Source: a virus
Lineage: Duplodnaviria > Heunggongvirae > Uroviricota > Caudoviricetes
DNA: 17,980 nucleotides
Direction: 5' to 3' (one strand)
Virus record (IMG/VR): IMGVR_UViG_3300026122_000001
Below are positions 1,323-17,794 of this stretch, one piece after another. The notes beneath the pieces were generated by a model. It saw nothing but the letters and a program-made list of their open reading frames with translations. It ran no database searches and was not told where the DNA came from. Position numbers and translations under genes: made by a program. Each line of letters starts with the position of its first letter. Positions within the stretch are counted from its first letter, which is position 1.

Positions 1323-1985
1323 TTGATTTGCTTCCCCTGGATAAGGCCGAGCACCCGAGCCTGTCGGAGCAGCTTGATGACAATCTTGGCGTCATCTACA
1401 GCCGTGTGTGGCACCTCGCCCGGGATACCCGCGCTCCATGCACTGTTTCATCCCGGGTAGGCGGTTCCCGTCGGTGTCCGGCCGCCAGTAATACATCGCT
1501 GGATCGATTGCCCGATGTCGGAAAATCACTTTGTCATTGCCCAGTTCGAGCCGCCTCAAGAACTGAAGATCAAATGCGCCAAAGTTCTTACCGGCCGCCG
1601 TGAGATGGTCACGTAGATCAAAACCGTTCTCCCGTAGGAATTCACATATCTCAAAGCCAACCTCACATGGTTGGTAGATTGGCACATACTCATCGAAGCC
1701 CATCTTCAAAGCTTCCGCTTCATCCTTGGGCTGGAGGGCCAGGTACTTGAAGATTTCGGCATTGAGCCACAAGGCATAGGGGGTGCCATAGAAGTATTCT
1801 GTCCGTGTCGAATCGTCCCGGCCACGAGAGTCATCCGAGCTAAGGAAACACCGGAAGGTCGGCAGATCATCCATAGGCGAATCCCAATCCGCAATGACGA
1901 TCCCGACTTCCAAAACGGAACACCACTCTGGGTCGAGCCCGGTTGTTTCAAGATCAATGCTCAGGTATCTGCCCTCTTTACCCAT
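1319..1985 (-). CDS. DEDDh 3'-5' exonuclease (DnaQ/RNase T-like), frameshifted near 1430
   Basis: ExoI IDLETTG and ExoII GKNFGAFD lie in ORF 1392-1985. ExoIII HTAVDD lies in the +1 frame (AGIPGEVPHTAVDDAKIVIKLLRQARVLGLIQGKQIK*), whose TGA (1319-1321) overlaps the next ATG. Confidence 0.85.
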
Positions 1986-12903: not shown

Positions 12904-13085
12904 GCCGGTTCGTGGGCCTTGACGGGAATCTCGATACCGTCAATCACCTCAAGTGTTGAGATAAGCGACCGCTTGGACTTCGTGTCCCAGGCCTTGACCT
13001 TACGCTGGCAAGCCAATGCGCGGAGTTGCGGGTCAGTGAGTGTCCGCAGCCAATCGTGGCGTGCAGCGGGGGTTTTAAGTGGCAT
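12900..13085 (-). CDS. Small protein resembling Rho N-terminal/SAP helix-extension-helix domain, 61 aa
   Basis: LTDPQLRALACQRKVKAWDTKSKRSLISTL fits the Rho_N/SAP-like spacing; GGAGG SD. Confidence 0.6.
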   Translation of the reverse strand: MPLKTPAARHDWLRTLTDPQLRALACQRKVKAWDTKSKRSLISTLEVIDGIEIPVKAHEPA

Positions 13086-15765
13086 TGATAGCCTCCATTG
13101 GTGGCGGGATATATCCCTCGGGTTTGCAGATTTCTCGGAGTCTGGTGTCTTGTTCGGGTGTTAAATCACGTTTCACTTGTGCCAGCTTCTGTGATTTGGT
13201 AATCTTCATGGCAGTGTCGAATTCCTGCTTTCGACGTTGGTACACGCCCATCAGTTCTTCGTCTGCCAGATCGTCGCCCTTGGGCTTCTTTGGAGAACTG
13301 ATACCGTTGGCGGCCAGTTCCTCAGTGGCCAGTTCCTCGGCCTGCGAGTCCAGGTATTCATCGTATGTGGGCATCAAGGCAATCGGACGAATCAGGTCGG
13401 TCTCGGAGCCACCCTTCTTCTCGGCCCAGTTAGCCTGAACCTTGTTCCAGGTCATGCCCAGCAGAGTTACCTTGTCTCGGTATGACTCAGTGACTCGACG
13501 TACCACAGCGGCCACAGGGTCGACGTATGTCGGGTGAGTGACACACATGACTTCATCATGGATGTTCATGGGTGCAACCATAAGCTCGTGGATACCAACC
13601 GGTTGCAGGTCCCAAATGGCCCGTTGCACTTCCTTGGTAATCATGGCACCCGGAGACTGAATCAAGTGGTTGGCTGCCGCCCGGGTGTTCTGAGCTTGAA
13701 TCTGGAATGCTGCGCCATAAAGGGCTGAGGACGCTGCGCCACCGGCTGTTTGTGGCCCACGTACCTCGTTACGCACCACATTCATTTTCACATCACGCCA
13801 TTGTTTGGGCACACTCTGTGCCAACTTGAACAAGGCGCTGATGACAGAGTTCTCCAGCGTGAAGTATCGACGGAAGCCCAGGAAGGTTTCGCAATGGTCG
13901 CTGGGGTCCTTCCACACTACTCGTGTGCCGATGCCCTTTGGTTGCGTGAGAGCACAGAAAGCCTGTTGTACACGTTCGCGAGCCGCTTTCACACCGGGGA
14001 ACCGTTTATCAAACCCCTTGAAGGCTTCCTCACCAATGTCCAGCGGAATCCCCTGGTTCTGGTATAGTGTGTTATGATCGCCGCCATAGAGCATGGCGAA
14101 GATGGCCGACTTACCGGGCCCATACATGTCGTTCTTTGTACCATCCGACTCCAAGACTTCCTCGTAGGTAGTGCCAGGGAAAATTTCCATGGCGAACATC
14201 GCATGGATTTTTCTACCTTCCAGCAACACCTGATGCAGCTTGGGGTCCTTGAATACGGCGTCGGCAATTGTAACCTCGAATGCGTCGAAGTCACCACCAC
14301 ACAGGACGTTGTCGCCTTCTGTGAGTGGGAACATTTTCCGCACAGCTTTGTCATGCTTGATACCTTGGGCATTCAAGCCATCGCCACCGGACATACGTGA
14401 ACTCAGTGTTCCGATGACTTTGAAGCTGGCATGGAACCGCCCGGCCTTCAACAGCTTGGCGTACAACTCGACTTCTTTGGCCGCGATTTTGACATCCAGA
14501 ATCTCTTGGGCTCGAATTGCCGCCGGGCTGGGTCCACCCTGCATGAAGCCTTTGCCATCACAACGTGGGCAAGGGTCGCCTTCCATTGTGATGCCGGACG
14601 CAAAACACATGGGGCACCCATCGCCTTCGTCACATTTCATCTGCGCAATCTCGGTCAGCACCTTTTTCTTGGTGCTGTTGTCCAACGGGATTGCCTCTGT
14701 GTCAGTCATCTTCTCTCGGATATATTTCCGAACAGCAGATGGCTTGTTGATGTTTACAGGCGAGTGCGACAGAACGCTGGCGGCGTTGGTCATCAATTTC
14801 CTGATGCCAGGAATGTTGATTTTGAAGCCACGCCAACGAACCACAGCCACCATGCATGCAAGCTCGCTGTCGGTGTCACCAGCCGGTGGTGACTCGAAGT
14901 GGTAATAAAGCTCTCGTGTATACACCACATCGTCCGTGGCGTACTCACGCGCACCTTCATGGGTGTGCCAATGATCGATGTGCTTTTGAATCTTGGCAGG
15001 CCAAGCATACCCCCGGAGAGAACCATCCGGCTTGTATACCGCCCAGTCCTTCTCAGGGCTGGACACAGCCGAGGCATACGGGGCATAACCCAATTCGGCC
15101 GGGCGATCAGTTTTGGGCAACTCGATGTCCGAGAAGTGCGCCTTGGGTTTCTTACCCAATGCATACTCGGCGAGAAACTTCAGACCACCAGCAGGGTTGA
15201 ATTTCAAGACCACGTCTTTCAGACACGGGTCTACCAGCCCAGTCTTGCGGTCCGTGACATCAAAGACCTTCCAACGTGGGCCCGACTTGTCTTTGGTGCG
15301 GGCAAACAGGATATCGTCGAATTTCACCCGACCCTCAAGCTCCATGGCCATCGCGTAGGCCAATGGTGTAGGCACCCGTCTGATCCTGACATCTTTCCGT
15401 GACATCAGCTTTTGATACGGGCCTCGGCGGGAATGCAGTAAGAGGTCACAAGCAGCCTTTGGTTTCAATCCGGGGCCAAAGCAGCCTTCAGATTCGCGGG
15501 CTGCAATCTCTTCGATATGTTCTTCCGGAATCCAATCCTTGGGGAACAACGAGAAGATTGTGTAGGTCTTGGCGAGGTGGAACCAGTCAAAGACAAGATT
15601 GAACCCACAAACCTCACGCTCGCAAATGAACTCGATCAAGGCCAGCGTTTTGTGGATGGGCTGTTTCCATACTTCAAAGAGATGGATTGGCCCGTCATCC
15701 TCGGCCCACTGGAGCAGAACCATCTGACCGTGGAGACCACAGGTTTCTGTATCAAAAAAGATCAT
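13075..15765 (-). CDS. polA: Family A DNA polymerase with 3'-5' exonuclease, phage type, 896 aa
   Basis: ExoI FDTET, ExoII GFNLVFD, ExoIII YATDD; RFHASF...SSRMS...LNAQ; motif A GGDFDAFE; motif B KSAIFAMLYG; ANHLIQ; motif C IHDE. No 5'-3' exonuclease domain. Confidence 0.96.
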   Translation of the reverse strand: MIFFDTETCGLHGQMVLLQWAEDDGPIHLFEVWKQPIHKTLALIEFICEREVCGFNLVFDWFHLAKTYTIFSLFPKDWIPEEHIEEIAARESEGCFGPGLKPKAACDLLLHSRRGPYQKLMSRKDVRIRRVPTPLAYAMAMELEGRVKFDDILFARTKDKSGPRWKVFDVTDRKTGLVDPCLKDVVLKFNPAGGLKFLAEYALGKKPKAHFSDIELPKTDRPAELGYAPYASAVSSPEKDWAVYKPDGSLRGYAWPAKIQKHIDHWHTHEGAREYATDDVVYTRELYYHFESPPAGDTDSELACMVAVVRWRGFKINIPGIRKLMTNAASVLSHSPVNINKPSAVRKYIREKMTDTEAIPLDNSTKKKVLTEIAQMKCDEGDGCPMCFASGITMEGDPCPRCDGKGFMQGGPSPAAIRAQEILDVKIAAKEVELYAKLLKAGRFHASFKVIGTLSSRMSGGDGLNAQGIKHDKAVRKMFPLTEGDNVLCGGDFDAFEVTIADAVFKDPKLHQVLLEGRKIHAMFAMEIFPGTTYEEVLESDGTKNDMYGPGKSAIFAMLYGGDHNTLYQNQGIPLDIGEEAFKGFDKRFPGVKAARERVQQAFCALTQPKGIGTRVVWKDPSDHCETFLGFRRYFTLENSVISALFKLAQSVPKQWRDVKMNVVRNEVRGPQTAGGAASSALYGAAFQIQAQNTRAAANHLIQSPGAMITKEVQRAIWDLQPVGIHELMVAPMNIHDEVMCVTHPTYVDPVAAVVRRVTESYRDKVTLLGMTWNKVQANWAEKKGGSETDLIRPIALMPTYDEYLDSQAEELATEELAANGISSPKKPKGDDLADEELMGVYQRRKQEFDTAMKITKSQKLAQVKRDLTPEQDTRLREICKPEGYIPPPMEAINAT

Positions 15766-15803
15766 GGCTGGGACCGTATACAATGGGGAGAGGCAGTTAT
15801 CAT
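15762..15803 (-). CDS. Putative leaderless uORF, 13 aa (MITASPHCIRSQP), stop overlaps polA ATG
   Basis: ATG 15803 is the 7th nt after the -10 box; TGA 15762-15764 overlaps ATG 15765-15763. Confidence 0.5.
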   Translation of the reverse strand: MITASPHCIRSQP

Positions 15804-15816
15804 ACCCCTATTGTAT
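15778..15816. promoter_or_regulatory. Inverted repeat overlapping the polA -10 box and start site (possible operator or hairpin)
   Basis: ATACAATGGGG (15778-15788) versus CCCCTATTGTAT (15805-15816): 11 bp with a 1-nt bulge and a 16-nt spacer. Confidence 0.55.
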
Positions 15817-15838
15817 CAAGAATCCGCCCTGCTGTCAA
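15810..15838 (-). promoter_or_regulatory. Sigma-70-type promoter upstream of polA
   Basis: TTGACA (15838-15833), 17-nt spacer, TACAAT (15815-15810) preceded by TGn (extended -10). Confidence 0.85.
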
Positions 15839-16911
15839 GCAGATTCCCCGGAGTCGCCAGATATTTCGGCTCGAAGCTCCTCGGTGGAGATTGTGTTGAG
15901 GGCCCAGGCCAGGGCTCGTGGGGCGGACACCTGGAAATCGCCGGTCATAAGCTCGGCAATCATGTCCTGTATTTCCCGCTTACGGCGTACCCCAAGCCCC
16001 CTAGATCGGCGGTAGATTTCTATCGAAGACAGGCCGAGTTTCTTCTGTTCCGCGAGTTGGCCAAAGAACCCATACGGACGCTGTTGTTCCATGTACTGCT
16101 GGATGTCCAACTGCGTGACGATACCGGCCGCAGCGGCCTGCTGGACCTCCTCGGGCAGCTTCATCAACTCCAGCCGCACCCTAACCCACCGTGGGCCACG
16201 ATTCACCCTGGTTTGAATCTCCTGCATGGATTGGTCCTGGCAGATACTCTGTAGGGCCCGGGCCTCCTCGAATAGGGTCAAGTCCTGACGGTCCAGGTTT
16301 TCCGTGAAATTCAGAAGTCGGGCCGCTTGATCTGTCAGCCCGGGTCGCAGAATGGCGGGTATGTGGGTCCACTTGAGCAGCTTTGAGCAGGCAAGGAACC
16401 GTCTGTGGCCCGCGACAATCCGCCACCGGAACCCGGCTGGTATTCCGCCCGGCACATCCTCACCCGGTTGGATAATGATGGGAGCTTCTAGCCGCGAGTC
16501 CTTGATACTGTTGGCAAGGTCGTTGACAGTATTCAATGGGATGGCTGGCCGACAGTTGAACCCTTTGTCCAAAAAGATTTCACTAACGGGTATGTTGTAC
16601 ACCTCATAGCCATCTGCCTGTGACATACAGGTTCCCCAGGCTTCTGCAATCTCTTCTGTATGATTTGCCGGGACCCAATCTTTTGGTAGCCGCTCGAAAA
16701 CTTCGTAGACTTGCTTGAGTTGTCGGGCTTCAACCAAACTGCTAAGTTCGTCCATCTCTTTGGTTCGGATAAACTCAATCAGGTCCATGGTCTCGCGCAC
16801 TGTGCTTGTTTGCACCTGATGGGTATGGGTGATCCCATCGTCCACAGACCAGGCGATGGTAATCAACTCGGAACCGTACAAGCCGCTCGTCTCTGTGTCG
16901 ATATAGATCAT
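15835..16911 (-). CDS. Fusion protein: N-terminal PolA exonuclease-like fragment + ParB/Spo0J CTPase and HTH domain, 358 aa
   Basis: Residues 1-89 align with PolA residues 1-88 (35 identities). ParB motifs: FNCR, LANSIKDSRLEAPIII, IVAGHRR, TENLDRQDLTLFEEA, HTH and LMKLPEEVQ. Confidence 0.9.
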   Translation of the reverse strand: MIYIDTETSGLYGSELITIAWSVDDGITHTHQVQTSTVRETMDLIEFIRTKEMDELSSLVEARQLKQVYEVFERLPKDWVPANHTEEIAEAWGTCMSQADGYEVYNIPVSEIFLDKGFNCRPAIPLNTVNDLANSIKDSRLEAPIIIQPGEDVPGGIPAGFRWRIVAGHRRFLACSKLLKWTHIPAILRPGLTDQAARLLNFTENLDRQDLTLFEEARALQSICQDQSMQEIQTRVNRGPRWVRVRLELMKLPEEVQQAAAAGIVTQLDIQQYMEQQRPYGFFGQLAEQKKLGLSSIEIYRRSRGLGVRRKREIQDMIAELMTGDFQVSAPRALAWALNTISTEELRAEISGDSGESA

Positions 16912-17213
16912 GCGTCCAACCGAGAGGTTTGTGGATATTTACCACCATACGGGCGGGCAGTAACTGTGGCTTGAACAAACTTGCCCGTTCGACGGACCAG
17001 TTCCAATCGCACTGCATGGCGGTCCTCAAGGGGATTCATATGCAGGTCCAGTAAAATGTTGTCCGACCCCTGGAGAATCTCCAGCACGATCGGAACCAAC
17101 TTCCGACACCGCTGGACTACAATGAGGCAAGCTTTGAGAAGCACTGGTTGACTGTATTCCCCGTCGCCTCGCCGATGCTTGTTGATGATCTTCTCAGCTT
17201 GTCGGCGTCTCAT
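16908..17213 (-). CDS. Hypothetical protein, 101 aa; N-terminus paralogous to 17194-17454
   Basis: ATGA overlap with the ParB fusion; shared RQAEK...H motif. Confidence 0.75.
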   Translation of the reverse strand: MRRRQAEKIINKHRRGDGEYSQPVLLKACLIVVQRCRKLVPIVLEILQGSDNILLDLHMNPLEDRHAVRLELVRRTGKFVQATVTARPYGGKYPQTSRLDA

Positions 17214-17454
17214 ACCAGTCCATTTCCACCGCTGCTATTGTGCGGCCCAAAAATTCATACTCGTGGTTCTGCAACCTTCGGAAGAGTTTGTTGGTGGCGT
17301 CCAACTGGACTAGCATAACCACCCGTGGGATATACCAAGCCTTTGGCCGCCGACGGAGGACAGTTTTGAAAGCCTCATAGACAGTGGCCTTGGAATGCTC
17401 GGTGAGTTCCCGACAGTGATTGATAACCACCTTTTCAGCCTGTCTGATTTTCAT
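17194..17454 (-). CDS. Hypothetical protein, 86 aa; N-terminus paralogous to 16908-17213
   Basis: Overlaps both neighbours; shared motif. Confidence 0.75.
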   Translation of the reverse strand: MKIRQAEKVVINHCRELTEHSKATVYEAFKTVLRRRPKAWYIPRVVMLVQLDATNKLFRRLQNHEYEFLGRTIAAVEMDWYETPTS

Positions 17455-17794
17455 ACCATTCCCCCTCTACTACCTGCACGGCCTCGTCCCAGAACATATA
17501 AGACTCGCGTTCGAGCCAATCCCAAATAGCCCGACGGAGAAATGCTTCCCAGCCTGCTTCCAAGCTTGGACCGTCGATGGCATAGGCGGTGTAACAGCTA
17601 GCCGCATCGCCAGGTTGATAGCCTGTGACGGTAGCAATCGTAAACCCGAGTGGTTCAGCTTCTGGGTCGTCCCCGTCATCGAGTCCTGTCCGACCTGGGG
17701 TGCCCTCGGTGTACTTGAACTCTATTTCAACCTCGGCGTACACACCAGACTTACCCAACGGCCCTATTTCCATAATGACAAAGTGTTTGCTCAT
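17435..17794 (-). CDS. Hypothetical acidic protein, 119 aa; paralog of upstream partial gene
   Basis: ATGA overlap; YAIDG...W..FL...IW motif shared with 17791-17979. Confidence 0.8.
   Translation of the reverse strand: MSKHFVIMEIGPLGKSGVYAEVEIEFKYTEGTPGRTGLDDGDDPEAEPLGFTIATVTGYQPGDAASCYTAYAIDGPSLEAGWEAFLRRAIWDWLERESYMFWDEAVQVVEGEWYENQTG

Follow-up and report, generated by a model that had tools for sequence, protein, structure and literature searches.

Noc, chromosomal ParB (Spo0J) and KorB are CTP-dependent DNA clamps in which a ParB_N fold carrying GxxRxxA and ENLxR motifs is followed by a helix-turn-helix (HTH). Orphan ParBs and lineage-specific fusions of the ParB-CTPase are common, especially on mobile elements, and some ParB folds bind ATP or GTP instead of CTP (PMC12704722). 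The gene described here shares the ParB_N and HTH order of these clamps and is found in a virus of the Caudoviricetes, where its first 95 codons are homologous to the beginning of the adjacent DNA polymerase gene, polA. It lies in a stretch of 17,980 nucleotides (the window), which corresponds to bases 95-18074 of the 128,458-bp IMG/VR virus record IMGVR_UViG_3300026122_000001, rated complete by CheckV. A first-pass annotation of this DNA had proposed that the ParB gene and its polymerase-like piece form a control or tethering system for polA. Our results suggest a simpler explanation, namely that a lineage-specific partial duplication of polA has probably given an orphan ParB an N-terminal appendage that is tolerated. 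The features on which the argument depends are the following, in window positions.

15835-16911, minus strand: the fusion open reading frame (ORF), P0001, 358 amino acids, a polA-derived N-terminal fragment joined to a ParB core
16627-16911, minus strand: the lineage-specific insertion, codons 1-95, 285 nucleotides (nt), homologous to polA codons 1 to about 95
15835-16626, minus strand: the native ParB core of 263 amino acids, beginning at M96, with ParB_N CTPase fold, HTH and helical C-terminal region
13075-15765, minus strand: the family-A DNA polymerase gene (polA), 896 amino acids, the ATG at 15765 being the likely start codon; the N-terminal domain is a DEDD exonuclease
15502-15765, minus strand: the part of the resident polA that the fragment matches, codons 1-88
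16644-16656, plus strand: the fragment's copy of the 13-mer CTGCAATCTCTTC, at the 3′ limit of the homology to polA, where it encodes EEIA on the minus strand
15501-15513, plus strand: the polA copy of the same 13-mer, in the corresponding place and also encoding EEIA
16908-17213, minus strand: the upstream 101-amino-acid gene, whose TGA overlaps the ATG of the fusion ORF (ATGA)

When residues 1-110 of P0001 were compared with the neighbouring polymerase by BLASTP, residues 1-89 aligned with 35 of 89 identities (39%), one gap and an E value of 1e-21, which is the same count that had been given in the first-pass annotation. The shared 13-mer CTGCAATCTCTTC was also found as described, with exactly two occurrences in the window where shuffled sequences give an expectation of 0. 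At the DNA level the fragment and the resident polA are about 55% identical. The fragment keeps the ExoI DxE motif as D5 and E7 of MIYIDTET; the start of the polA product reads MIFFDTET, and its gene opens ATGATC. The ExoII motif, Nx(2-3)[FY]D, has been lost, with the FNLVFD of nearly all members of the polymerase family aligning to LSSLVE in the fragment, and other residues invariant in the family have been lost as well. The fragment stops at residue 95, ahead of the ExoIII motif Yx3D and short of a complete five-stranded fold. These motif alignments agree with the earlier description of a piece in which ExoI is kept, GFNLVFD has become ELSSLVE and ExoIII is absent. With ExoII lost, and with neither an ExoIII nor the second half of the fold, the fragment is, as judged from its motifs, no nuclease.

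The remainder of P0001, for which the PHROGs name is ParB-like partition protein, is a ParB of recognizable type. Pfam assigns ParB_N (PF02195) to residues 104-206 with 32.3 bits against a cut-off of 26.3, and HTH_ParB reaches 22.3 bits over residues 209-266, just below its cut-off of 22.6. The ParB family profile matches Noc (7nfu) with an E value of 3e-33 and aligns through the HTH of Noc despite the sub-cut-off Pfam score, so that the HTH claimed to be intact is upheld by the profile and structure match to Noc and falls slightly short by Pfam. The nucleotide-binding motifs AGHRRFLA (167-174) and ENLDR (204-208), which align to AGERRWRA and ENLQR of Noc, are invariant in 8 and in 31 relatives, in keeping with the intact GHRR and EN.R motifs reported earlier. 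In a model built with the ParB homologue alignment, residues 101-358 have a predicted local distance difference test score (pLDDT) of 85-97 compared with 41-61 for residues 1-100, and the model of the ParB core matches Noc, ParB and KorB structures, in the case of Noc and KorB over about 200 residues. The lack of a ParA noted for the window extends to the whole virus, since no ParA-type ATPase (PF13614, PF01656) was found in the entire 128-kb record, with positive controls. No ParA-activating motif, [LFI]G[KR]G[LFI], was seen on reading the sequence of P0001, and the C-terminal dimerisation domain (PF23552) was not detected by Pfam in the ParB core. The native ParB begins a few residues ahead of the CTPase fold, without the ParA-contacting tail. 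The locus thus lacks the ParA side of a ParABS partition system, and the gene is predicted to encode an orphan ParB/Noc/KorB-type, CTP-switch-type DNA-binding protein. By homology and motif loss, the initial view was correct in seeing a protein of the ParB-CTPase type whose extra N-terminal piece is a degenerate copy, without catalytic capacity, of the start of the adjacent polymerase.

The polymerase-derived piece is absent from the relatives of this phage. The nearest ParBs in a 5.8-billion-protein collection, P0004, P0005 and P0006, are 72%, 66% and 58% identical to P0001, have lengths of 263-265 amino acids and cover 73% of the query; these and the more distant ParB homologues all begin at M96 of P0001 in the alignment. 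The contigs of the relatives keep the gene order of small ORF, parB and polA. When the window was compared by blastn with the three closest relatives, L004, L005 and L001, both flanks aligned and the insertion stretch was absent from all three. L004 has 42 nt opposite 327 nt in the window, a clean 285-nt insertion that sits between the ATGA overlap of the upstream gene and the native parB ATG. In L004 the TGA of the upstream gene overlaps the parB ATG itself (GCATGAAC), while in the window the same GCATGA leads into the polA-like codons, 285 nt ahead of the native parB ATG. By parsimony, the insertion would postdate the split from the L004 lineage.

Wider searches gave the same answer. An alignment-based scan of IMG/VR returned 62 loci, 41 of which (L011-L051) have a ParB at least 31% identical, and in 39 of these 41 parB is followed on the same strand, at a distance of 70-3300 nt, by a polA of the same family. 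No polymerase-like piece was found in front of parB in these 39 related loci, where the fragment matches only the start of the downstream polA. A HMMER search with residues 1-95 against 1.84 billion representative proteins gave 20 matches at an E value of 1e-3 or better, none of them a full-fragment match above 40% identity. No second fusion to ParB was present among the 13 matches whose sequences were read: 12 are polymerase N-termini, all with an ExoII-type motif, and the other is a repetitive protein of no relation. A scan of metagenome contigs with the fragment gave no relative; tblastn of the ParB against GenBank phages gave matches to the ParB core only, at about 25-35% identity; and a low-sensitivity word-indexed search for longer proteins carrying the fragment returned the query alone. 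The combination of polA fragment and ParB is thus seen in this genotype only, and the fusion is a one-off, lineage-specific one. Since the fusion does not recur in relatives or databases, the proposal of a polA control or tethering system is not supported.

Two of the HMMER matches, P0113 (100 amino acids) and P0117 (102 amino acids), consist of a polymerase N-terminus only and end at the same aligned position (..FVDL and ..YVDI), near the end of the fragment. These proteins may come from polA genes of other phages that are split or interrupted.

In the explanation we favour, a 285-nt copy of the first ~95 codons of polA would have been placed start codon to start codon before parB, in frame. 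The likely route would be illegitimate recombination at the shared ATGA with which both genes begin; alternatively, the stretch from parB to polA codon 95 could have been duplicated in tandem and the first copy of parB then lost. Through coupling to the upstream 101-amino-acid gene, translation would now begin at the ATG of polA type and run through 95 additional codons before reaching ParB, and ParB of native length may also arise from M96. The appendage would be a catalytically dead half-exonuclease at the site of the ParA-contacting tail of canonical ParBs, a site expected to be tolerant of N-terminal additions. It would be tolerated and perhaps mildly useful as a folded tag, and is most likely no dedicated polymerase-control device.

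The sequence of the fragment points to an origin within the polymerases of this group of phages. Among the window, L004, L001 and L005, the pairwise identity of the polymerase N-termini is 86-95%. In a 23-row alignment the fragment has 37-39% amino acid identity to these own-clade N-termini and 27-38% to more distant family members, and in a four-way codon alignment with the polAs of the resident genome, L001, L004 and L005 it has 53-57% nucleotide and 41-43% amino acid identity. A maximum-likelihood tree of 56 N-termini attaches the fragment at its own clade, beside L001 and the pair formed by the window and L004, with a terminal branch of 4.6 changes per column compared with a median of 0.58. 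Long-branch attraction would instead have drawn the fragment to long branches, so its attachment to a short-branched clade argues for an own-clade origin. We read the fragment as having come from a polA of the phage's own clade and as having then undergone strongly accelerated change.

A different origin, which we consider possible although somewhat unlikely, is capture, in which a divergent relative present in the same infection would have donated the 285 nt from its polA and most of the divergence would predate the insertion. The divergence does look protein-constrained, and the resident polA is not nearer to the fragment than are the polAs of L001, L004 or L005. Informative sites include E39 and D43 of the fragment, which are K and A in the resident polA. 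The Jukes-Cantor distance between the fragment and the resident polA at codon positions 1+2, 0.58, is also at or above the neutral one-branch expectation since the L004 split, the distance between the window and L004 at 4-fold sites being 0.92-1.0 over two branches. However, no polymerase N-terminus closer than 42% was found in the 1.84 billion representatives or in the 39 related loci, a functional donor would have carried ExoII, and the tree places the fragment at its own clade and not on a deep branch. An argument from a neutral clock, that the fragment is too diverged to have originated after the L004 split, was dropped because 0.92-1.0 and 0.58 are within error of compatibility. A partial duplication of polA soon after the L004 split would be just about compatible with these distances.

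Several observations weigh against regarding the appendage as only tolerated. When the same number of nucleotide differences per codon position was placed at random, 24.5 ± 2.8 amino acid identities were obtained compared with 35 observed (P about 2e-4), the BLOSUM62 sum was 90 ± 19 compared with 195 observed, and only 7.7% of the random sets were without a stop codon. Identity between the fragment and polA is 0.52, 0.69 and 0.46 at the first, second and third codon positions, the second being the best kept. The fragment and the ParB core were also folded separately, each with its own homologue alignment, and the fragment folded alone with the polymerase N-terminus alignment gave a confident model (pLDDT 88.7). 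The non-random, conservative substitutions indicate that some protein-level constraint has acted, so that in this one genotype the fragment has not undergone purely neutral decay; it is probably translated and partly constrained, and to call it a mere passenger may understate its role. The model has three strands (beta1-3), helix A, a long helix B that starts from the former ExoII position and a third helix (alphaC), and is predicted to be half of a DnaQ/RNase H-like (DEDD exonuclease) fold. A Foldseek search with this model returned nothing significant, and many of its weak rows were RNase H-like (RNase T, RNase AS and retroviral integrase cores).

In principle, the fragment could be a selected new domain that tethers the ParB clamp to the polymerase or a partner, or that acts as a decoy, and so provides a new replication control. 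The substitutions are conservative and clustered in an open frame, the fold is confident when a homologue alignment is supplied, and the linkage of parB to polA across the group makes a connection between ParB and replication plausible. Nevertheless we regard such a domain as unlikely, as it is found in a single genotype, has lost many family-invariant residues and sits on a very long branch. The predicted half RNase H-like fold is without the elements that pack against it in PolA, PolA already has its own N-terminal half in cis, and in the full-length model the fragment is of low confidence. The open frame by itself proves nothing because translation of ParB from the coupled start depends on the frame. 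A predicted complex of the fragment with PolA residues 7-330 scored 0.00, which weighs neither for nor against binding. That the fragment has some lineage-specific function is improbable, and the more specific version, in which the half-exonuclease appendage is a selected adaptor or decoy coupling a CTP-gated ParB clamp to the polymerase or a partner, is a long shot. If that version were true, a replication-control link would have been caught soon after its birth by partial duplication of a polymerase gene; were the appendage functional at all, it would offer a handle on the job of ParB at the replisome.

A concern of another kind is whether the appendage is made at all. ParB could be produced mostly from the native M96, in which case the 95 upstream codons would be only an in-frame leader; M96 is the start used by all relatives and is preceded at ~7 nt by a GGGGA Shine-Dalgarno-like element resembling those of other genes in the phage. 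We find this doubtful, and a little more so than a selected domain, since there is no stop codon between 16911 and 16626, the ATGA coupling is retained at 16911 in the same way that the relatives start ParB, and the conservative substitutions suggest that the 95 codons are translated. Finally, an assembly chimera or misjoin can be dismissed, as two copies that are only ~55% identical in DNA are not a collapsible or duplicable repeat and a repeat-induced misjoin is thereby excluded, the joint is in frame, and the fusion is not peculiar to one assembly, the exact protein being present on 4 contigs and the same sequence having been recovered from contigs of three different lengths and from the independent Logan assembly of SRR5210212, which is 100% identical to the window over 5146 nt with both joints included.

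The first-pass annotation had also placed the fusion in a control module together with the inverted repeat at the polA promoter and an upstream ORF (uORF), which requires one further feature.

15810-15838, minus strand: sigma-70-like polA promoter, TTGACA-17-TACAAT with TG, overlapping the parB stop

This promoter and its overlap with the parB stop are kept in all four close relatives, which are without the fusion, whereas the region of the uORF and inverted repeat is conserved mainly in the closest relative, L004. The fusion is therefore not an integral part of such a module. A ParA-less parB upstream of a polA of the same family is conserved in a group of uncultured phages without a GenBank phage relative of the polymerase, PolA having given no match to GenBank phages at 1e-10. 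The conserved position of ParB directly upstream of polA and its promoter suggests that ParB has a role in the replication module. The parB-polA module is found in phages that have no such fragment, and the appendage is therefore not required for it.

Within the same region (window 15766-15838), the window and L004 share a 26-nt block, ttcttgatacaataggggtatgataa, without a single difference, whereas identity at 4-fold sites is only ~45%. An 11-nt inverted repeat (15778-15788 and 15806-15816) covers the −10 box of the polA promoter. This repeat could be an operator, possibly for the neighbouring ParB.

All of the long ORFs in the window are on the minus strand and have phage-type annotations, which include an HD phosphohydrolase, a methyltransferase, a GuaC-like dehydrogenase, a PRTase, an ATP-dependent ligase, a sigma factor and the family-A polymerase. 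Two tandem paralogue pairs adjoin the fusion upstream (window 16908-17794 and past the window end, L008:1765-3004). The 118- and 119-amino-acid genes of one pair have 30% identity (E 3e-10), and the 86- and 101-amino-acid genes of the other have 34% over 50 amino acids (E 4e-4); a counterpart of the 86-amino-acid gene, 71% identical, is present but uncalled in L004:672-854. The presence of these pairs just upstream of the fusion indicates that the neighbourhood has a history of duplication events. Elsewhere in the window (1392-1985, minus strand) a separate 197-amino-acid protein has SIDLETTGL, resembling a DEDD ExoI, at its start; its match to PHROG 192, 'DNA polymerase exonuclease subunit', is confined to residues 3-36, and it has no Pfam match. 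The same genome also encodes a second protein with ParB_N and HTH_ParB (G000:C1 near 52,080-53,240; L009:841-2001, minus strand), in a 386-amino-acid frame that probably has an internal Met start and with a degenerate nucleotide motif, DGLYRLN compared with GxxRxxA.

With respect to Noc, ParB and KorB, the phage protein differs in having no ParA, no ParA-binding motif seen on reading its sequence and no PF23552 domain detected by Pfam, and in being phage-encoded directly upstream of polA with a 95-amino-acid polymerase-derived N-terminal extension. The occurrence of a ParA-less ParB directly upstream of a polymerase and its promoter, common to ~40 related uncultured phages, is the more general puzzle posed by this locus. 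Like the orphan ParBs and ParB-CTPase fusions that have been surveyed, the gene lies outside a parAB operon, is phage-borne and carries an extra lineage-specific module; unlike them, its partner is no recurrent Pfam domain and derives from the neighbouring gene, whose first 95 codons it reproduces in truncated and degenerate form, and an exonuclease or DnaQ fusion partner is not mentioned in the main text of the survey (PMC12704722). The fragment can also be set beside the DEDD (DnaQ-like) 3′-5′ exonuclease domain that phage family-A polymerases carry at their N-terminus. It corresponds by homology to the initial ~95 residues of this domain in the polA of its own clade, with the ExoI DxE, beta1-3, alphaA and alphaB, and differs in its destroyed ExoII, its missing ExoIII and the missing second half of the fold. 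Chimeric genes arise by partial duplication of a neighbour, as in phage mosaicism and illegitimate recombination. The fusion described here resembles such chimeras in that the fragment appears to have been copied beside its parent, fused in frame and diverged fast, and it offers a clean natural example of a new phage protein architecture, in which the first 95 codons of a neighbour have been fused in frame to a complete gene. What sets it apart from them is the start-to-start placement, which is unusually precise and would keep both the translational coupling and the complete downstream protein.

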